From: Promethearchaeia archaeon
GTDB taxonomy: Archaea > Asgardarchaeota > Lokiarchaeia > Sigyniarchaeales > SOKP01
Reading direction: 5' to 3'
Length of the DNA: 17,374 nucleotides
NCBI GenBank assembly: GCA_046483985.1
Contig: JAWOCD010000010.1
Location: forward strand, 1-17,374
Shown here one piece after another: positions 7,576 to 17,200 of this stretch (position 1 is the first letter of the stretch; each line of letters opens with the position of its first letter). The notes below the pieces were generated by a model, which saw only the letters and a list, made by a program, of their open reading frames with translations, searched no databases and was not told the origin of the DNA. The position numbers were made by a program, and so were the translations under genes.

Positions 7576-8247
7576 ATGAATCTTAAAGAGTTCTCGAAAA
7601 TTTTTGATCATACCAATCTTCATGCAGATGCTCGTGCTGAAGATATTGAAAAATTATGTGAAGAAGCAATTGAATATGGATTTGGCACAGTATGTATTAA
7701 TGCTGGAAATATCCCCATTGCGAGAGAAATCTTGGAGAATTCAGAAGTTGAAATCTGTACGGTGGTTGGATTCCCCTTAGGTGCCTCCTTGCCGTCAGTG
7801 AAGCAATATGAAGTCAAACAAGCACGGAAGGCGGGTGCTTCGGAGTTTGATATGGTGATTAATATAGGTGCATTAAAAAGCGGTGAATACGAGAATGTAA
7901 AAAAGGATATCCAAGGGGTGGTAAAAGCTGCAAAGGGAAATATTACAAAAGTTATTCTGGAAACATGTTACCTAACTGATGAGGAAGTCATGAAAGCCTG
8001 TGAGCTTTCACTGGAAGCCGGAGCGGACTTCGTAAAAACTAGTACCGGATTTGGTCCCGAAGGGGCTACACTAGAAAATGTGGCACTTATGAACAAGACC
8101 GTCGAAAATAAAATGAAGGTAAAAGCATCGGGCGGCATTCGTTCCTATGAGAAGGCGAAAAAGATGTTAGATGCTGGAGCAGACCGAATCGGTGCAAGTT
8201 CAAGTGTGAAGATTGTGGAAGAGTATCGAAGCATAGTGGAAAGCTAA
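7576..8247 (+). CDS. deoC: 2-deoxyribose-5-phosphate aldolase
   Basis: Motifs DHTNL, CTVVGFPLGA, EFDMVINIG, KVILET, FVKTSTGF (Schiff-base Lys), KASGGIR and RIGAS. Confidence 0.97.
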   Translation: MNLKEFSKIFDHTNLHADARAEDIEKLCEEAIEYGFGTVCINAGNIPIAREILENSEVEICTVVGFPLGASLPSVKQYEVKQARKAGASEFDMVINIGALKSGEYENVKKDIQGVVKAAKGNITKVILETCYLTDEEVMKACELSLEAGADFVKTSTGFGPEGATLENVALMNKTVENKMKVKASGGIRSYEKAKKMLDAGADRIGASSSVKIVEEYRSIVES

Positions 8248-8348
8248 CCATTACTTTCATAAAATCATAACAATTGGGAATGTGCAAAAAGAAATTTTAA
8301 AAATTTTTATGAAATTTTATTTAATATATTAGGAAAAAGGAAAACAAT

Positions 8349-9377
8349 ATGACGAATAATATTTTAGCTAAAACTCGCTGCTATTTGAGTGGACCTATGG
8401 ATTTTGTGGGCTCCCGGGTGATAGAAAAGTTCTTGGGGTGGAGAGCAATCCTTACCCCTCTCTTAAAAGCATTAAATATCACTGTTTTGGATCCTTGGAA
8501 TAAACCGGCAATTAAAGGTCATGAAGATTATGGAAAAGAAGGAGTTTTACCTTCAAAGAAGGAATATGAAAAAGATTTCTGGACAAGCAATGAAACCAGG
8601 GCGAAATTTGAGACAGATTTCTGGGAAACCGTACATATTGATTTACGCATGGTCGATATTGCTGATTTCGTGGTCACATTTGTCCCAACGAATATTTATT
8701 CTGTGGGCACAGTACATGAGATTGTCACGGCCCGAAATCAATTTAAGCCTGTTTTACTTATCAGCCCGCCCGTAAAATATGAATTTTTTCCCGAAATTGA
8801 TTGTTTATCTGATGAAGTAAAACGGGTTCTTAAATACTATGGACTAAAAGAAAATCCCAAAGGGATCCCTTCTCAATGGTACGGTAATATCGTAGGCGGA
8901 CATTATATGTTTGACGGTTTCGGCTGGGAATCTCTTAAATTTAAGGTCGATGATTTTTATGAGTTATTGATCGATGAAGTAATTAGTAATGCAAAACCTG
9001 AATCCGAAGAGGGGGAAAGATTTTCTCGATGGAAAAAAGTAAAAAACTGGGTAAAAAATTTCGAACCGTTACAAAATCTCACGGGGGGAGTATTGGATCA
9101 TGTCACCTTTAAGGGAAATGAGGAGAATATGCTTGAACAAGAATTAAAGGCCGAAAAAGAACAAGAGCGTGAATTTTTCTGGTATAATACACCTTATAAA
9201 CCAAAACGTTCGGTTCTTTACCAATTATTTAATATTGCAAGCGGTTATATCCCTCCGCGTCTAAAAATGCTGAGCCATCTTGATGAGAATGGAGAGATAC
9301 AATATGAAAGTTATGAATCTACTGATGACAACTGGTTATTGATTAAGCACGATGAGCAAAAACAAGAAAAATCATAA
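8349..9377 (+). CDS. Nucleoside 2-deoxyribosyltransferase/DNPH1-fold N-glycosidase-like protein with C-terminal extension
   Basis: Motifs YLSGPM, WR, VLDPW, DLRMVDIADFVV, SVGTVHE (candidate catalytic Glu) and KPVLL. About 200 aa follow the core. It is co-directional with deoC across a 101-nt gap. Confidence 0.75.
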   Translation: MTNNILAKTRCYLSGPMDFVGSRVIEKFLGWRAILTPLLKALNITVLDPWNKPAIKGHEDYGKEGVLPSKKEYEKDFWTSNETRAKFETDFWETVHIDLRMVDIADFVVTFVPTNIYSVGTVHEIVTARNQFKPVLLISPPVKYEFFPEIDCLSDEVKRVLKYYGLKENPKGIPSQWYGNIVGGHYMFDGFGWESLKFKVDDFYELLIDEVISNAKPESEEGERFSRWKKVKNWVKNFEPLQNLTGGVLDHVTFKGNEENMLEQELKAEKEQEREFFWYNTPYKPKRSVLYQLFNIASGYIPPRLKMLSHLDENGEIQYESYESTDDNWLLIKHDEQKQEKS

Positions 9378-10004
9378 TTTTTTTTTATATCTTCCATCTT
9401 CCTTGTCTATGATTTGAAACCCAACTTTTTTTAAATATGTTTTATGTTCTTCATGATCTGAGCTGGTATATAAAGTATGATATTTTTGTTCTTTTAATCT
9501 GTTAAGTCCTTCTCTGAAGAGATATTCTCCGTTCTTAAAATCTCTATATTCCGGAATGATGTAATCAACCAAAATCTCTAACTCATTTTCGTTAATTGGT
9601 TCCGTGATAAAAATTCCTACGGGAATCATATTTCTGAGGATAAGTATCTCAATAGCCTCTTCATCTAACTCTTCCCGATTAAACTGAGGAAAGAAATCTT
9701 GAATGTCCGTTTGATAATAATCTATAAACTTTTCCAGAAGCACAGATAACCCATTTTTTATTTTCAAGATTTCGAATTTATCTTGGGACGTTAAAATATC
9801 ATTTAAATAATAGAGATTCACAAGAATGATGATTAGATTTACTAAAAATACGGGATACGCTTGAATAATCAAGCCATAAATAACAAAAATGATTGCGCCG
9901 GTCGTATTAATAATTCTGAGTTTTAAGATATTTTTCATTGCCAAAGAGATAGCGACCAACACGGAAGCCAAAAATCCCACAATTTCAAGCCAGATCATTT
10001 TCAC
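9372..10004 (-). CDS. YgjV-like membrane protein fused to a GNAT-like C-terminal domain
   Basis: Three N-terminal TM segments (GFLASVLVAISLAMKNILKLRIINTTGAIIFVIYGLIIQAYPVFLVN). The C-terminal domain has DYIIPEYRDFKNG and YLKKVGF. The start is GTG 10004 or ATG 9998. The 3' end overlaps the convergent gene by 6 nt. Confidence 0.7.
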   Translation of the reverse strand: MKMIWLEIVGFLASVLVAISLAMKNILKLRIINTTGAIIFVIYGLIIQAYPVFLVNLIIILVNLYYLNDILTSQDKFEILKIKNGLSVLLEKFIDYYQTDIQDFFPQFNREELDEEAIEILILRNMIPVGIFITEPINENELEILVDYIIPEYRDFKNGEYLFREGLNRLKEQKYHTLYTSSDHEEHKTYLKKVGFQIIDKEDGRYKKKL

Positions 10005-10156: not shown

Positions 10157-11221
10157 CTAAAATTGAGCAATTTCCATGGCCACTTCATCCATTTCTTCTC
10201 TATCCCGTGTCTTCTCTTCTTGCGGATTACGTTTATAATAAATGTATAATCCCGCCAGAATCAAAGCTATAGGGAGTATTACCAAGTAGAGAAAAAATAG
10301 AAAATCGTTCCAAGGAAAGATACGTTCTGGCGCAAATCGGTTTAAATTCCATATAATAAGAATAGTTAACAAGTATGTTGTAATAAAATTAGCCAATGGA
10401 TCCATTGAGCGTGTCAGCCCCATACCCCTTTTACGTTTTCCAGTTATAGGCCAGATGAGATTGGAACCCAACCATCCAAACTGATCTACGATTACATGCC
10501 CCCAAACTCCGCCAACGACGATTCCTATAATGGTAAGAATCTGAAAATCAGTAAGCGTTACTCCATTAATTAAATAGAGGTATCCAGCAGCAATAGCCAT
10601 CAGAATTCCGAAGAAAATACCAATCGTGAGAGAGTGAGACCATCGACGATGCCATTGAATAAAATCGGCATAAATTTTATCTTCTTCTCTTCGGAATTGG
10701 AATGTCGGCCCATCCCATATATCCACATGAGTGACATCTTCATAGGAATATTCTAAATCTGGTTTATATTTTACTACTGCTATCTTTTCCTCTTCGGGTT
10801 CCGATCCTTTAATGATTTCTAAACCGGTGGTAATTAATGGACCAATTCTCACTTCCACTTCTTTTGCCTTTTGCCTGAATAATACCGAATATCTGCGCCA
10901 TAAGCCATTAGGCAACCGTAAAGTATGAAGTTTGAGCTTAACTGGGTCTTCGGTTTTATATGATCTGTTGATTGCTTCTGCGATCCCCTCAGCCACTCTC
11001 CACGGATCCAGTTCATGGTAGCCTGGACTTACTGCGATATCTTCACGCTCTAAATATCTGCTGAACTTAAAATCGAGAAAGTCGGGTAAATATCCAAATA
11101 ATCCTCCGATTGGTATTAACATAGTAAGTAAGACCAAATCGGGATCATATGCTGCGCTGACGACTACTGGAAAAAACGTCGCCACACAGACTCCTGTCAT
11201 AAAATGTGTTAAACCTTTCAT
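10157..11221 (-). CDS. YdjM-like membrane-bound metal-dependent hydrolase with ~130-aa soluble insertion
   Basis: Motifs MKGLTH, LPDFLD, HRRWSHSL, HVIVDQ and G..LIWP, plus several TM segments. A Shine-Dalgarno AGGAGGT lies at 11240-11234. Confidence 0.8.
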   Translation of the reverse strand: MKGLTHFMTGVCVATFFPVVVSAAYDPDLVLLTMLIPIGGLFGYLPDFLDFKFSRYLEREDIAVSPGYHELDPWRVAEGIAEAINRSYKTEDPVKLKLHTLRLPNGLWRRYSVLFRQKAKEVEVRIGPLITTGLEIIKGSEPEEEKIAVVKYKPDLEYSYEDVTHVDIWDGPTFQFRREEDKIYADFIQWHRRWSHSLTIGIFFGILMAIAAGYLYLINGVTLTDFQILTIIGIVVGGVWGHVIVDQFGWLGSNLIWPITGKRKRGMGLTRSMDPLANFITTYLLTILIIWNLNRFAPERIFPWNDFLFFLYLVILPIALILAGLYIYYKRNPQEEKTRDREEMDEVAMEIAQF

Positions 11222-11233
11222 TTTTTATTTTAT

Positions 11234-11240
11234 ACCTCCT
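11234..11240 (-). promoter_or_regulatory. Shine-Dalgarno site of the YdjM-like gene
   Basis: AGGAGGT overlaps the upstream TAG, 12 nt before the ATG. Comparable sites precede the other internal operon genes (12586-12581, 13450-13445, 14308-14303). Confidence 0.6.
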
Positions 11241-12570
11241 ATGCGATACCAAAAAATTGACTTACTTCCAAGGATAATCCTGCCATCGATAACATGATGG
11301 GTATTGTGATGACCGCAATGCAATGGACGCGCCGGGTATTGAAAAGCAAAGGAATGGCTCCAATTACCGTGGCAATCGCTAATATGATTAATCCCGAATT
11401 CCCCAACATTAGATAGGTAAGTGTAAGCATTACTATCAGTCCAAAGATTGAGATATATCTTGTGTCTATCTTATGAATTGACTTAGTTATTCCGTTAGCA
11501 ATTAGGGTGAAGAGATACCATCCTATTGCGCTGACGATAAATATGGTAGCAGCAATTATGAGCAATTCGCCAAATGTATTTGGAACATAAAATAATGTAA
11601 TAAATAAAGCTGCACCCCCCCTTCGAATTATGACTCCAGGGATGAATAGCAATAGCACCGCACCCACATAATAAACCGTTCTGGATATCCCTTGACTGAG
11701 CATAAATGACCGATCGCCAGATTGAGCCACCGCATGTCGGGAAAAACTATTACCTATCCCTGCTGTGAGGGAAGGTACCATCATCCCGATAGATCCTCCG
11801 ATGACACCGGCGGCAATTCCTTGCGCTAATTCTGCCGACGACAATTCAAACGTTTTTCCTAAGTTTTGCTTGGGAATCTCTTTCTTGGAAGCGAAGAGAT
11901 TTTGAATTAACGATGGGAATGCAAATAGTCCCACAAATGCAGCCGCTAACCCTTGAAATGAACGTTCTGCTGGAACCAGTTGACTAAAGAATAGTAATAT
12001 TCCCAATATACCCGCTGCAATAATCACAACTAAGCCCATGGATAATTGAACCCATGCCGCGGCTAATCGACCAATGCGCGTTTTTTGACGTGCCGGGTCT
12101 TTGGGCCATTCTGACATCCATATAAAGAGCATCGCCGTTGCGATAATCCATAACGAATGATCTACAATGAGATCAACCATGTATGTTAAAAATTCATTTC
12201 CAAATATGATTAGAAGACAACTAATGACAGCACCGATGACTGCTCCCAATCCGGTCAAGTAAACCGCCTCATATGCCTTTCCTTCATCTAAATATTTTTG
12301 ACTAGGGAAAACCATAAAAATGCTGGAATCATCCGGTGTCTGAAAATAAACCGCTGATATGCTTGATCCCATACAATACCCGACTAACATTGAAACAGTG
12401 AATGAAGAGAACACCAATGGATCCAGTGTTCCCGCGCCCAATAAAAAGAGTACCACGAATCCAAGGATTGAGTAGACATGAAATCCTGGGATCAAGGAAA
12501 GCAGCATCGCAGCCGTGACACCGATTATTCCAAATCCAATACATAACAAGATTAAACTTATCTCAATCAT
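11239..12570 (-). CDS. TctA/DUF112 (tripartite tricarboxylate transporter permease)-like protein, archaeal type
   Basis: Highly hydrophobic, ~440 aa. It has LIPGFHV in the first repeat and MVPSLTAG in the second, plus PDDSS..MVFPSQKYLDEGKAYEAV and GLFAFPSL. I prefer ATG 12570 (GGAGGT 10 nt upstream, 1 nt after the previous stop) over 12588. Confidence 0.8.
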   Translation of the reverse strand: MIEISLILLCIGFGIIGVTAAMLLSLIPGFHVYSILGFVVLFLLGAGTLDPLVFSSFTVSMLVGYCMGSSISAVYFQTPDDSSIFMVFPSQKYLDEGKAYEAVYLTGLGAVIGAVISCLLIIFGNEFLTYMVDLIVDHSLWIIATAMLFIWMSEWPKDPARQKTRIGRLAAAWVQLSMGLVVIIAAGILGILLFFSQLVPAERSFQGLAAAFVGLFAFPSLIQNLFASKKEIPKQNLGKTFELSSAELAQGIAAGVIGGSIGMMVPSLTAGIGNSFSRHAVAQSGDRSFMLSQGISRTVYYVGAVLLLFIPGVIIRRGGAALFITLFYVPNTFGELLIIAATIFIVSAIGWYLFTLIANGITKSIHKIDTRYISIFGLIVMLTLTYLMLGNSGLIILAIATVIGAIPLLFNTRRVHCIAVITIPIMLSMAGLSLEVSQFFGIA

Positions 12571-12571
12571 T

Positions 12572-13438
12572 TTAGGAAGAACCTCCATCGTTTATGATTT
12601 CTACATCGTAGAGCGATGCGGGAATAATTTCTGGTGCTCCATAATATTCCTGCACAATTCCCTCAACTTCGATGATGTCTCCATCTACCAAGGAAAGGGA
12701 TCTATCGGGACTAAATTCCCGAACATAATTGGGAAAATAAACGGTTACTAATCCGTCAAGGGTGAAATAGGCGTTATCATTATCCACCCAAGTTACCGTA
12801 CCGTTAATCTTTACCCGTTTTCCAACCACATCGGAAGCCGATTCATTATATTTATCAGATAACTCAAGTGGCGTAGTAGAAAAATCCACTTTACGGACGG
12901 ATTTGAAATGAGAGCTTGATTCCAAGTTCAGATATAAATCATCACCTCGGATATAAATCGATCCACGTACTTTGCAATGGTCATTCAATGCGGGAGTATT
13001 TTTGTCCTCTATTATTTCCTCGGTAGTCTCCGTATATGCCTTTACTTTAATTGAACCTGTCTCATCTTCCACCGTAAAGATCAGCATACTCCATGATTCG
13101 TCATCAGCCACGTTGTAATCAATATTAGTGATATCCCCTTCGATAGTTACAATTCCATAAGAATAAGTGGGCCCAATATCTCCGATATTCACATTGGGGG
13201 CGGGTTCAATTTGCGCGTAATGGGAAATCCCCAATATGCCGATGATTAATATAATCACAGTTCCGATTTGTAGTATCCGTAATCTAGTGCCATGCCGCAT
13301 TTTCGCTCCGCAATATGGGCAAGAATAAAACGCGCCGACATATGCTCCACATTTAGGGCAATATCCCGGTTTATTCTTATTCTTTTCAGATGAAGTTTCA
13401 TGCTTTTTCTTTTCTTTTTTGTTTTGACTTTTCTGCAT
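12572..13438 (-). CDS. Zinc ribbon - TM - tandem OB-fold membrane protein
   Basis: CPKC...CPYC is followed by the TM segment ILQIGTVIILIIGILGI. OB1 is VTIEGDIT...FTVEDETGSIKV...CKVRGSI and OB2 is GKRVKINGTV...GDIIEVEGIVQEYYGAPEIIP. The SD GAGGTG lies at 13450-13445. Confidence 0.8.
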   Translation of the reverse strand: MQKSQNKKEKKKHETSSEKNKNKPGYCPKCGAYVGAFYSCPYCGAKMRHGTRLRILQIGTVIILIIGILGISHYAQIEPAPNVNIGDIGPTYSYGIVTIEGDITNIDYNVADDESWSMLIFTVEDETGSIKVKAYTETTEEIIEDKNTPALNDHCKVRGSIYIRGDDLYLNLESSSHFKSVRKVDFSTTPLELSDKYNESASDVVGKRVKINGTVTWVDNDNAYFTLDGLVTVYFPNYVREFSPDRSLSLVDGDIIEVEGIVQEYYGAPEIIPASLYDVEIINDGGSS

Positions 13439-13441
13439 AAT

Positions 13442-14293
13442 TTACACCTCAACAATTTCGATTGATTTTTCAGTAGCAGTGGATGGGATAATCGCAATTT
13501 CGCCTTGATATTCATCAACTACCCCGGTAACTTTCACATGATCCCCGATTTCGGGATACACAACTGCATCGTCTGCTAAACCCATTTGTCCGGCACTCAA
13601 ATATGCTGTAATATTTTCATTATTCTCTGAAACCGTGAATAACATATATTGCCCGTTTTGATAGTCAATAGGAGATAAATATCGAGAGACAACCTCTCCT
13701 TCAATTTCTACTCTCTTCCCGACATGGTTAAGCAGAATTTCCCCAATTTCCATTTCCATTGTATCAACGGATAAAAACTCAATTGAATCAACATTTTCCA
13801 CCACCAAGGATGTAATTAGACCAGAATATGAACTATTATAAACATCGACCGTCCCTTCGACAATTACCTTATCTCCAATACCGGGTAAGGTGTCAGAATC
13901 TTGAAGATCGGAGGTAAACTCCGACCATCCATAGAAATCAATGGTTCCCGATGTATCGTTCACTGTAAATGATGCTTTTTCATACGTAGCATCATAATCC
14001 ATATCCACGATTGTACCCGAGATTCGGACCACTTCGCCCTCCATATTTGGGCTGATATCTCCGATGGGAGTTATAAGGGTTGCCTTGTGATATGCATAAA
14101 CCATTAACCCGCCACCGATTAGTGCTATTACAAGCATATATATATGAACCTTCTTCGTAGTTAATCGATCAATTTGTCTGAGAGAAGCGCCGCATTTATT
14201 ACACGATCCGATATCTGGCACCCGTTTTCCACATGAGGGACAGATTACATATTTTTTTTCTCCTTCATTAGACTTTTGCTTTTTGCTTATCAC
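13442..14293 (-). CDS. Zinc ribbon - TM - tandem OB-fold membrane protein (paralogous architecture)
   Basis: CPSC...CNKC is followed by the TM segment IYMLVIALIGGGLMVYAY. OB1 is GEVVRISGTIV...FTVNDTSGTI...GDKVIVEGTVDVY and OB2 is GKRVEIEGEV...GDHVKVTGVVDEYQGEIAIIP. The GTG start overlaps the upstream TAG (TAGTG). Confidence 0.8.
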   Translation of the reverse strand: MISKKQKSNEGEKKYVICPSCGKRVPDIGSCNKCGASLRQIDRLTTKKVHIYMLVIALIGGGLMVYAYHKATLITPIGDISPNMEGEVVRISGTIVDMDYDATYEKASFTVNDTSGTIDFYGWSEFTSDLQDSDTLPGIGDKVIVEGTVDVYNSSYSGLITSLVVENVDSIEFLSVDTMEMEIGEILLNHVGKRVEIEGEVVSRYLSPIDYQNGQYMLFTVSENNENITAYLSAGQMGLADDAVVYPEIGDHVKVTGVVDEYQGEIAIIPSTATEKSIEIVEV

Positions 14294-17200
14294 TACTTGT
14301 TCTCACCCGCTGAGGATTCAAAGGTATACGGATCATCTTTTTCCTCCTTTTGCTTTAATTTCTTTATTAAGAGTTTTTGTTTAGTGATTTTGGTCTGCAA
14401 ATCTTTTACGAGTTCATTTAAGGGGGATTTTTGGTCCTCTGAAATATTTTCCATTTCTTCCTTAAGCGCTTTTTTCTCTTTCTGAATTTTAAACATTTTA
14501 TCCTTCAGTTCTTGAATCTTTCTTTCTTGCTCAGCTAATGCGTCCGCTAAATTCCCGTGGTCTTCTTGTGCTTTAATATTCTCTGTTTCCTTTTCAATTT
14601 CCCCGATTTGCGATACATAGGAATCCATTTTATTGTCCTTTTGCCTTAATCTTTGCTCGAGTTCTCTCACTCTTTGCTTAAGATATTCAGTAGAGAGAAG
14701 AGATTGGAGGTCTCTTTCCGCATCGAATGCAATATAGCGATTTTCCCGATATTTCAGGATGGCAACTCTGTCAATGGGCGTGAGGTATTTTCCTTTTTCT
14801 ATCAATTGGTGACTGTGTTTTATATAATTTCTGACAAATTCACTCGGTTCAATATCATCCAACGGTTCCCCTTCCTCATTTAGGTGAGGAACCCTTACCT
14901 TCTCTCCATACATTTCGTGTACGCTCTGTCTTATATCATTTATATCAACGGGTTTCTCCTTTTTCGGGGGTTCTGTCTTTACTGCCTTTTTTTCTCTTAA
15001 CCTATCCCTGGCAAATTCTTTTTTCTTTTGAATTTTCCTTTTCCGTCTTCGAATGCTGTATCCAAATCCGAGGATACCCACATATAATACGGAAGCAACT
15101 GGGAGCCAGAATAACCACGTCGTAGTCTCCAAAAAGCCGTTTTCATCTTCTGGTTCCCCCGGATTTGATACCGAATACCCTCCCCAATCATAGTTAAATA
15201 ATTGTACATAATAGGAAGCCACCTCCGTACTATTCACAATTATCCCGATTTCACGATTTCTTGTGGCGGAATTTTCGTTCCAGTTCAAGGACGAGATCAG
15301 TACAGCCTCTTTATCTACAATAAGCGCTTTAACATGAAATTTCTCTATTCCTCCGGAGTTGTTTGAGTATTTGATTTGAACGCCGTGTGACTTGAGAATC
15401 GCAGCTGCTTCGTCATTATTATTATCCCCTTCTAAATTGTACCAAGTAGAATCGAGGATCACTTTTACGCTTACACCCCTATCAGCAGCATCGATAAGGG
15501 CATGCATAAGCGGATTGTTATTTTGTCCGCCATAATAATACGGCCATGTTGGATATAAGTAAAATAATTCAGCATATATACTGTCTTGAGCTTGGTTGAT
15601 TAAATCAACCACGACTTGGATTGTTTCATCTGGACCAACGACCGTCTGAAATGTGGCATTAATTGTATTGTAAGTTTGAGGCTCCTCAAAAAGGGGTTCG
15701 TAATTTCCCTCTAAGATCTCATCGTTTTTCTTGGGACTTACCACGTCAAAATCAGAGTAATTCTGAGCTAAATTCCAATCGAAATTATAGACATTTAAAT
15801 ATTTTGCAGTAATATCTGTGTTATTTACCGCAATACCCCAGCCTCGGTTTCCTGCCGAAGAGTCTTTAGGTATACCTGTATATTTAAAATTCTCGGTGGA
15901 AATTAATACCGTTTCATTATCAATTAGGAAATATTTCGAATGATAATAATTCAAGAATTTACCGCTGACCAGTCTGACGGTTCCGTTTTCATGGCCATTG
16001 ACATGATTTGCCACATATACCACTTCATTTGCCTCATCAGTACCGCCATTTTCTAAAGATGCTCCCGGATATATACCTTCCAGTAGTAATCTCACATGAA
16101 CACCTCGATCTAAGGCAGCAAGGACTTCTTGTAAAATCCAATAAGATGTAAATTGATAGACACAGATATCCAAATTATGCTGAGCTGAACCGAAAAGTTG
16201 TGTAAGAGCATTAAATGAATTATCAGGGGAGCTAAAGGCTGTAACAGTAGCATTTTCACTTATTGAACTTGAAAGGAAAAGTGAACTATTTGAGTGTTTT
16301 CCTAAGGAAGGAACTGTATCATATCTCCAATCCTGGCTAGAATTGGTATCCACATATTCATCATTTTGGTTGGGATTATAGAGTCTTGTAAGAGCAATAT
16401 CCTCTTCAGCGCTACTTCCGATGTATATCCCGTCACCATTCCAGCTTGAATTGTCGATAGTTTCTACAAATGGATCACTGCTCCGATATGCGACCCTATC
16501 AATGATGGTTTTGAAAGGATCAGTCAGAATTATATCTTTTGGGGCACTGTTAGGAAGTGTAAAATCTCCGCTGCAATTTAAACCGCTAAATCCGTATTCT
16601 CCGCTCCATGCTGATGCATCTCTCATGACCACCAAATAGGAATTTGCTGGAATGATTAAATCAGAAGGGAATCGTGTATCTTCACCACTGGTCCAATCGT
16701 CTGAATTCCAAAGTGACCAATTGCCCACATTTAAATCGGAATTTAAGGTGTTATATATCTCAATATATTCAAAATCTGAATCAGTTCCATTAGGATTAAT
16801 CATAATTTCCGTAATAAGAGCGCTTCCTGGTGTATCGGGATTATATTGAGGTAATGCTCCGGGTGTTGGACTCGATGTAAACCAGTCTGATGGTAGATTA
16901 TTATCCTCTAATCCTTGAGCTTTGGTTAAATTATACCTTTGAATCGATTCTCCAGAATCACTAGGCGCCGCAACGGTATCATTACTATTCCAATAATAGG
17001 TATTTTTATGTACATCTTCATCAAGATCTGAACCATAAAGGACCGCATCAACTACATCTCCGGTACTATTTCTTAATAAAACCCAATCTCCGTCATCCTT
17101 TAGGCTTATTGTAATATTAAAATCCGTGTTCGCATCGTCATCTCCAAGAGTTATCACCTCATAACCTTGAATTGTAATAGAGGGCAAACTCCGATTATAG

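Follow-up and report, generated by a model that had tools for sequence, protein, structure and literature searches.

A protein of the nucleoside 2'-deoxyribosyltransferase superfamily with large insertions, encoded beside deoC in a Loki-type Asgard archaeon, as a putative DNPH1-like (deoxy)nucleotide N-glycosidase

The deoC and NDT-like gene pair

The window analyzed here is a stretch of 17,374 nucleotides (contig JAWOCD010000010.1) from a 4.06 Mb, 97% complete genome of the Promethearchaeota, a Loki-type Asgard archaeon, and it contains two genes in tandem on the + strand: deoC, for deoxyribose-phosphate aldolase, and a gene for a 342-aa protein of the nucleoside 2'-deoxyribosyltransferase (NDT) superfamily. 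The deoC product (7576-8247, +, 223 aa) scores 286 bits against the TIGR00126 deoC equivalog profile, whose cut-off is 117, and also matches PF01791. Its translation carries the lysine motifs of class I aldolases, FVKTSTGF in the Schiff-base context and VKASGGIR, so that on its sequence this is a bona fide aldolase gene of the DeoC/DERA type; the genome has a single copy. An AT-rich spacer of 101 nt (8248-8348, +) separates it from the NDT-like gene (8349-9377, +), likewise single-copy, which encodes a long-form NDT-superfamily protein that the fold model and profile alignments described below mark as a putative DNPH1-like (deoxy)nucleotide N-glycosidase.

No homologue of deoA, deoB or deoD was found in the window when every open reading frame (ORF) of at least 200 aa was annotated. 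The original prediction for this locus, made from the letters of the sequence alone, had described deoC followed by an NDT-fold gene with none of these three genes nearby, and it was right on both counts. Genome-wide, bacterial-type deoB was not found (archaeal-type mutases were not searched for), and two phosphorylases of the PNP_UDP_1 family are present. Given these two phosphorylases, and given that only the bacterial type of deoB is shown to be missing, the further claim that the pair bypasses phosphorylase and phosphopentomutase is not established.

Fold and architecture of the 342-aa protein

Direct searches with the 342-aa protein gave weak matches at best. PF15891 was matched below its threshold (17.6 bits against 30) and PF05014 not at all, NCBIfam returned nothing, and PDB sequence searches with the protein or with profile A1, built from its close homologues, produced chance matches only (pneumolysin, SNARE). 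An exhaustive phmmer search linked it at E-values of 1e-12 to 1e-15 to stand-alone relatives of ~185 aa, two of which pass the PF05014 gathering threshold of 28.8 (P0180, 30.8 bits; P0194, 30.1 bits). Profile A2, which comprises 64 family members in three tiers (long form, short form and the 185-aa relatives), reaches two NDTs of solved structure, 2a0k (E 1.2e-3) and 6evs (E 4.6e-3), and YtoQ weakly (E 0.22).

A first AlphaFold2 (AF2) model, based on 20 close homologues, had low confidence around the active site, with a predicted local distance difference test score (pLDDT) of 71.7, and was replaced by a model computed on the 64-sequence alignment, which reached a pLDDT of 91.7 and a predicted template modeling score (pTM) of 0.90. 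In a VIA-align scan of 48,161 chains, run independently of Foldseek, the best match of this model was the NDT 7o62 (Z 11.5, root-mean-square deviation 2.5 Å over 129 residues), and other matches included 7m5h (Z 11.3), 8rh3 (10.8), 6evs (10.6), MilB 4ohr (10.3), YtoQ (10.3) and RCL 2khz (8.5). The top nine matches all belong to the NDT superfamily, and TIR domains scored below 9. Foldseek concurs, with NDT-superfamily matches at E 5e-4, and the protein atlas offers NDT leads that agree with this without being specific. Transitive homology, the profile search and the structure model, three independent lines, thus establish an NDT-superfamily fold for the modeled protein despite the weak direct matches.

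The VIA alignment covers residues 5 to ~298, and the protein is therefore not an NDT domain followed by a C-terminal domain but an NDT core with insertions. These family-specific insertions lie at about residues 50-80, 139-175 and 190-287 and amount to ~150 aa in total. According to the secondary structure of the model and the VIA alignment, the segment at about residues 190-287 (8916-9209, +) is mostly helical and interrupts the NDT fold, which resumes with its final core helix (289-297) before a β-hairpin (304-324); the A2 alignment of the 185-aa relatives spans this segment as a gap. With the core broken by such large insertions, the label "NDT-fold gene" fits no more than about half of the sequence. 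The original prediction of a DNPH1/NDT-fold enzyme stands for the core fold and falls short of a protein of double the size, with ~150 aa of insertions, scores below the Pfam cut-offs and a family of ~1,576 members behind it.

Active site

Three segments of the protein align with the catalytic elements of the superfamily. The β1 motif R10-x-Y12-L-S-G-P-M-D18 (8376-8402, +), invariant in A1 and at least 90% conserved in A2, places Tyr12, within CYLSGPM of the translation, on the catalytic or 2'-deoxy-selecting Tyr of NDT and DNPH1; in the profile alignment it falls on the β1 Tyr of 2a0k (KIYIAGP) and of 6evs (KIYLASP). D98-L-R100 (8640-8648, +), nearly invariant in all three tiers, supplies Asp98 as candidate acid/base, aligned on the Asp of NDLEH in 6evs at a position where 2a0k has Asn. 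S118-V-G120-T-V-H-E124 (8700-8720, +) contains Glu124, the candidate nucleophile, which aligns on the NDT nucleophile Glu, and Ser118, which aligns on the Asp of the NDT motif D-x-G-T-x-x-E (D-C-G-T-A-F-E in 2a0k, D-T-G-T-A-W-E in 6evs). Asp98 precedes Glu124 by 26 residues (DNPH1, 24; MilB, 25), and the Ser(-6)/Gly(-4)/Glu spacing of the third segment is that of the DNPH1/MilB 5'-phosphate site.

DNPH1 uses D80 as acid/base and E104 as nucleophile, and its S98, together with S128', coordinates the phosphate, for which NDT transferases have no pocket (PMC10603095). MilB contacts the phosphate through S97 and G99 and has E103 as its nucleophile (PMC4081090); its F17 is the equivalent of DNPH1 Y24, and the F17Y substitution reverts its preference to deoxyribose (PMC10603095). 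The Tyr in β1 (YLSG) and the Ser in SVGTVHE to which the original prediction pointed are read in the translation as Tyr12 and Ser118, and what it made of them agrees with our alignments: Ser occupies the phosphate position described for DNPH1 and MilB in the two papers, where the NDTs 2a0k and 6evs have Asp, and Tyr over Phe favors deoxy substrates by the MilB precedent.

In the long form (A1) Y12, D98, G120 and T121 never vary, and S118 and E124 reach at least 90% conservation; A2 shows that Y12, D98, G120 and E124 also persist in short-form proteins and in the 185-aa relatives. Four basic residues, R32, K52, R100 and K133, are near-invariant in A2. One long-form homologue, P0112, reads RVGTMHK in place of SVGTVHE, so that both the phosphate-site Ser and the nucleophile Glu are gone; judged from this segment, it may be an inactivated copy.

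Family and distribution

The family numbers ~1,576 clusters, all annotated as hypothetical proteins, mainly from Verrucomicrobiota with a few from Asgard archaea. The long form has 335-350 aa and the minimal form 185 aa; a short form of 270-330 aa is 45-50% identical to the long form over residues 1-200 and has a different C-terminus. Between Asgard archaea and Verrucomicrobiota identity is ~60% across the full ~340 aa, insertions included (A1). Among 201 sampled Asgard genomes only 2 carry the NDT-like gene, and none of the 40 genomes of the window's own family in that sample does. In a protein tree rooted with the short forms, the archaeal copies make up a basal grade and the bacterial copies (Verrucomicrobiota, Lentisphaerota, Spirochaetota) one nested clade (support 87/96). 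Searches of PADLOC-DB 2.0 and PHROGs returned no match for the 342-aa protein, and neither a PADLOC match nor residence in a defense island identifies it as a known anti-phage component.

Linkage to deoC and co-occurrence

Gene neighborhoods were compared over 80 reference-genome loci and 6 metagenome loci, complemented by targeted genome searches. We found deoC adjacent to the NDT-like gene in eight archaeal loci, in three arrangements. The window's own locus (WIN), L001, L004, L094 and L095 have deoC and then the NDT-like gene in tandem, with a spacer of 0 to ~100 nt (0 to ~90 nt in the orthologous loci, with direct abutment in L001); in L003 the order is NDT-like gene, c9 (a small membrane-protein gene described below), deoC; and in L005 the two genes are divergent. 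In the heimdallarchaeote G220 the tandem is split by a contig break (L008 and L099): L008 opens, at positions 1-43, with the last 12 codons of the deoC ORF, the remainder of which lies at the edge of contig C204 (G220:C204:1-632). The two contigs overlap by 9 nt, CGTCAAAAT, inside the deoC 3' end, and joining them restores the tandem. When WIN, L001, L095 and the G220 locus are compared, only the deoC/NDT-like pair is common to all. Much of the Loki-type neighborhood is otherwise syntenic (c23-c25-c25-c22-c24). The adjacency is real and limited in lineage to the archaeal grade.

Co-occurrence extends beyond adjacency, with deoC above its cut-off somewhere in 24 of 26 long-form genomes. In the window's family, deoC is present in 6 of 41 genomes, and 35 of the 41 have neither deoC nor the NDT-like gene; all four genomes with the NDT-like gene carry deoC, adjacent in three and at a contig edge in the fourth. 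One sample of this family gave deoC in 0 of 25 genomes outside the few with the NDT-like gene. In several other Asgard families deoC is near-universal (e.g., 21/21, 42/43 and 18/19). Seven of the eight linked deoC copies fall in one 12-tip half of the deoC tree, that of L005 lies apart, and unlinked copies are interspersed. Movement of deoC and the NDT-like gene as a cassette was considered; the deoC tree is not decisive on the point and no claim is made.

The bacterial long-form loci have no recurring neighbor family and lie among scattered housekeeping genes; no nucleotide-metabolism neighbor recurs, ComEC, ribonucleotide reductase and IMPDH being found once each. In a Victivallales metagenome-assembled genome (L006:2844-5987, +) the gene immediately preceding the long form, in the same orientation, encodes the ComEC-type competence (DNA uptake) protein. 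In one Heimdallarchaeota locus (L030:763-2229, -) a gene for a xanthine-dehydrogenase-type FAD/2Fe-2S subunit is divergent from the NDT-like gene, a single instance that may be linked to base catabolism.

Proposed function and alternative explanations

The 342-aa protein is very probably an active N-glycosidase or transferase of the NDT superfamily. The reading that we prefer, as the best supported one, is more specific, and we hold the chances for and against it to be about even: like DNPH1, the protein would remove the base from 2'-deoxynucleoside 5'-monophosphates (dNMPs) as an N-glycosidase, and the deoxyribose-5-phosphate (dR5P) that it releases would be cleaved by the adjacent DeoC. Glu124 would attack C1' of the dNMP with Asp98 as acid/base, while Tyr12 would position the nucleophile and disfavor a 2'-OH, and Ser118 and Gly120 would hold the 5'-phosphate. 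The base would then leave and dR5P would form, which in the archaeal lineages would pass to the neighboring DeoC to yield glyceraldehyde-3-phosphate and acetaldehyde. Along with this scheme we infer hydrolysis over transfer, a dNMP as substrate, metabolic coupling with DeoC and whatever role the ~150-aa insertions may have. According to a 2026 study, the NDT-family hydrolases characterized so far all act on dNMPs or ribonucleoside 5'-monophosphates and the transferases on deoxynucleosides; the study assays such hydrolases through DeoC coupling (PMC12884076). The route from dNMP through dR5P to DeoC had been put forward in the original prediction. It gains from the residues, the linkage and the co-occurrence, but loses from the missing adjacency in bacteria, the frequency of deoC in genomes without the gene and the divergence of the 342-aa protein; action on modified bases, which was also raised there, is pure speculation.

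Several observations weigh against a dNMP hydrolase coupled to DeoC. Within the protein, an invariant Asp18 stands six residues past Tyr12, where MilB has the phosphate-binding R23; an invariant S22-R23 lies five residues beyond Asp18 (A1) and might, by its position in the sequence, be a substitute second phosphate ligand. Ser118 is not conserved in the 185-aa relatives, which have T, M, P or L there (A2). At twice the length of DNPH1, the protein carries strongly conserved insertions, which hint at a more elaborate substrate or partner. The family members are all labeled hypothetical and the function of each is only predicted, and paralogues with 45-50% identity over residues 1-200 belong to operons that also encode PLD-like proteins and large proteins without assignment, close to Septu-type ATPases. 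As for the linkage, conserved in the eight archaeal loci, deoC lies within 6 kb in none of the ~27 bacterial long-form loci (nor in any of the 44 short-form loci), two further Heimdall loci have no adjacent deoC, and on the protein tree the adjacency looks like one ancestral state rather than repeated independent gains. Finally, deoC is present in 121 of the 201 Asgard genomes against 2 of 201 for the NDT-like gene; being so common in genomes that lack this gene, DeoC has in it no general route of supply.

An active N-glycosidase with a substrate other than canonical dNMPs is possible, although we consider it unlikely. The substrate could be a damaged or modified deoxynucleotide, in a role of pool sanitation like that of DNPH1 with hydroxymethyl-dUMP; it could also be a ribonucleotide, a nucleoside di- or triphosphate, or a cofactor derived from a nucleotide, and the link to DeoC would be secondary (clean-up of dR5P) or incidental. 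The conserved catalytic triad fits such an enzyme, as do the extreme conservation between archaea and Verrucomicrobiota, insertions included, the extra near-invariant basic residues, the patchy, accessory-like distribution and the bacterial loci in which deoC is not adjacent; in addition, DNPH1 itself proved to work physiologically on a modified nucleotide (PMC10603095). Tyr12 in place of Phe, on the other hand, favors 2'-deoxy substrates by the MilB/DNPH1 precedent, and the conservation of the deoC pairing in both Loki and Heimdall settings speaks for the importance of the product. Since any deoxynucleotide substrate yields dR5P, this explanation overlaps with the one that we prefer.

The DNPH1 β1 motif is Y-F-C-G-S, and the Y-L-S-G-P of the 342-aa protein is nearer to the aligned Y-I-A-G-P of an NDT, which together with NDT transferases being the closest structural matches could indicate a transferase rather than a hydrolase. 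Such an enzyme would exchange bases on deoxynucleosides, like a classical NDT, or on dNMPs, as a phosphodeoxyribosyltransferase like the phage protein DmtZ, and would serve salvage, not catabolism; a natural dR5P transferase does exist in the superfamily (PMC12884076). We regard it as improbable: the Asp with which NDT transferases contact the 5'-OH is a Ser here, NDTs have no phosphate pocket (PMC10603095), and a role in salvage leaves the conserved pairing with a catabolic aldolase unexplained.

The synteny of much of the Loki-type neighborhood and a protein tree on which the adjacency could have arisen once and later been lost would also suit a single ancestral juxtaposition inherited passively in related archaea, in which case the adjacency is uninformative and the role of the protein unrelated to deoxyribose. 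We think this quite improbable, considering that WIN, L001, L095 and the G220 locus have the pair alone in common, that the pair outlasts three rearrangements (tandem, divergent, separated by c9), that deoC in the window's family is almost confined to the genomes with the NDT-like gene, and that the predicted chemistry gives the substrate of DeoC.

An effector of a conflict (anti-phage) system that destroys nucleotides or NAD, like NDT-like or TIR-like effectors, with deoC adjacency as inherited synteny of no metabolic meaning, seems to us about as improbable: NDT-like effectors are known in retrons, short-form paralogues of many phyla have a DrmC-like PLD protein, PtuA-type ATPases and an EEP-family protein as neighbors, and the distribution suggests horizontal transfer, but the long form has no PADLOC or PHROG match, is single-copy, lies in bacteria among scattered housekeeping genes with no recurring neighbor, and in archaeal loci is conserved with deoC only and with no defense gene.

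Other genes of the window

Downstream of the NDT-like gene and convergent with it lies c9 (9372-10004, - strand), whose stop region overlaps that of the NDT-like gene by 6 nt. It encodes a 210-aa protein for which a transmembrane scan gives three N-terminal transmembrane helices, followed by a soluble tail of ~130 aa, and which has weak SemiSWEET_2 and YgjV matches only. This gene is the most constant neighbor in Loki-type loci, more so than deoC (WIN, L002-L005, L094, L097). Next comes an operon on the - strand (10157-17373) for YdjM, TctA, two OB-fold proteins of the tRNA_anti-codon type and a protein of at least 1,026 aa with LTD and double PLDc_2 domains. At L003, L004 and L094 the operon keeps its synteny with the deoC pair, and L001, L002, L005, L095 and the Heimdall locus lack it; missing as it is at several loci with the pair, it is no obligatory partner of deoC and the NDT-like gene. 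The remaining annotated genes of the window encode a GAF-Lrp regulator, a 536-aa protein without assignment, a Ras-like GTPase, a nitroreductase and a GPH/MFS_2 symporter.

Operons of the short form

Among loci L037-L080, the short form occurs in an operon in which c3 (~790 aa), the NDT-like gene, c2 (~550 aa) and c6 (257 aa) follow each other on the same strand (for example L037:1644-7528 and L060:5899-8468, and also L041, L044 and L062). The c2 product is a two-HKD PLD-like protein with two PLDc_2 domains and weak similarity to DrmC. Hosts of the c3-type operon include Bacillota, Aminicenantes, Dehalococcoidia, Nitrospirota and Atribacteria, among others. In other phyla c4 (~600 aa) replaces c3 (L040, L050, L053, L054, L058, L069, L074, L075 and L078), and PtuA-type ATPases (c12) and an EEP-family protein (c37) recur near short-form/c4 loci. 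The proteins c3 and c4 have a region of ~200 residues in common (HHalign probability 83%, E 8.5e-6); the protein atlas gave nothing usable for c3, and the match of c4 to the MfnB family PF04476 is below threshold (E 0.025) and a lead only. The idea that c3 and c4 are DeoC-like barrels was rejected, as HHalign shows no relation to DeoC. The short-form operon may be an undescribed nucleotide-processing or defense module.

A broader view, which we offer as a doubtful conjecture, is that all three tiers, long, short and 185-aa, make up one large unrecognized branch of the NDT superfamily, marked by the motifs Y-L-S/A-G-P, W-R, D-P-x-N-K-P, D-L-R and G-T-x-x-E. The proteins of this branch would act as nucleotide N-glycosidases and would repeatedly be teamed with enzymes that process the sugar-phosphate released: with DeoC in Asgard archaea, for the catabolism of scavenged DNA, and with c3/c4 (possibly an MfnB-like barrel) and a PLD-type enzyme in many bacterial phyla, as an undescribed module for nucleotide-destroying immunity or DNA scavenging. 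The insertions would gate or regulate access to the active site.

Significance

The chemistry and residue logic invoked here are established. In the literature searched we found no description of the family, of its architecture or of its pairing with deoC in archaea, nor of a prokaryotic pathway of a DNPH1-type enzyme with DeoC or of DeoC nucleoside catabolism in Asgard archaea. To our knowledge, the coupling of the two reactions has so far been known from the mammalian biochemistry of DNPH1 and DERA and from the DeoC-coupled in vitro assay. If the preferred reading of a DNPH1-like N-glycosidase coupled to DeoC is correct, ~1,500 hypothetical proteins of Verrucomicrobiota, other bacteria and Asgard archaea would gain a DNPH1-type deoxynucleotide N-glycosidase function, and a natural archaeal gene pair would document a two-enzyme route from dNMP to central metabolism, by release of the base and then DeoC cleavage. 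The pair would further provide an entry point to how DNA-scavenging sediment archaea feed deoxyribose into glycolysis without phosphorylase and mutase, and the protein, divergent and with its large insertions, would be a scaffold on which to study how the NDT fold gates its substrates. As an informed prediction, the finding will not surprise specialists.

Comparison with known systems

Two structurally similar proteins, 7m5h (a conserved protein of E. faecalis) and YtoQ (8of6), are matched well by the model (Z 11.3 and 10.3; Foldseek E 5e-4 to 1e-3) and, unlike it, are single-domain proteins of about 150-170 aa; no function is described for either in the literature searched. The NDT/PDT enzymes (7o62, 8rh3, 6evs, 2a0k, 1f8x and 1s2d) give the best structural matches (Z 8.9-11.5), are the only solved proteins that the sequence profile reaches significantly and share the Y...D...G-T-x-x-E pattern. 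They differ in having Asp at the position of Ser118 and no phosphate pocket, and are nucleoside transferases of about 140-165 aa.

The CMP and hydroxymethyl-CMP N-glycosidases MilB and BlsM (4ohr, 4ohb, 4jem) have the same fold (Z 10.3), with the Ser97/Gly99 phosphate contacts of MilB at the positions of Ser118/Gly120 and the Glu six residues after the Ser. MilB departs from the 342-aa protein in its β1 Phe and ribonucleotide preference, where Tyr is found here, in Arg23, which serves the phosphate and hydroxymethyl groups and corresponds to Asp18 here, and in its role in antibiotic biosynthesis, away from deoC. DmtZ, a phage dAMP hydrolase and dR5P transferase to which the protein is likened by description only, belongs to the NDT superfamily, acts on a dNMP, releases dR5P and has been followed in a DeoC-coupled in vitro assay (PMC12884076); it is a small phage protein for Z-base DNA synthesis, for which no pairing with deoC is described.

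DNPH1/Rcl (2khz, 8rqd, 8rpt) is unlike the protein described here in being a compact single-domain homodimer of about 150-175 aa, against 342 aa with insertions, in having no detectable sequence similarity to it and in carrying R30 six residues past the Tyr, where Asp18 stands here. The two nevertheless have the same fold (Z 8.5 to 2khz; Foldseek probability 0.97-0.99), the same positions of the Tyr/Asp/Glu triad and the same Ser(-6)/Gly(-4)/Glu phosphate motif, and the product of DNPH1, dR5P, is the substrate of DeoC.

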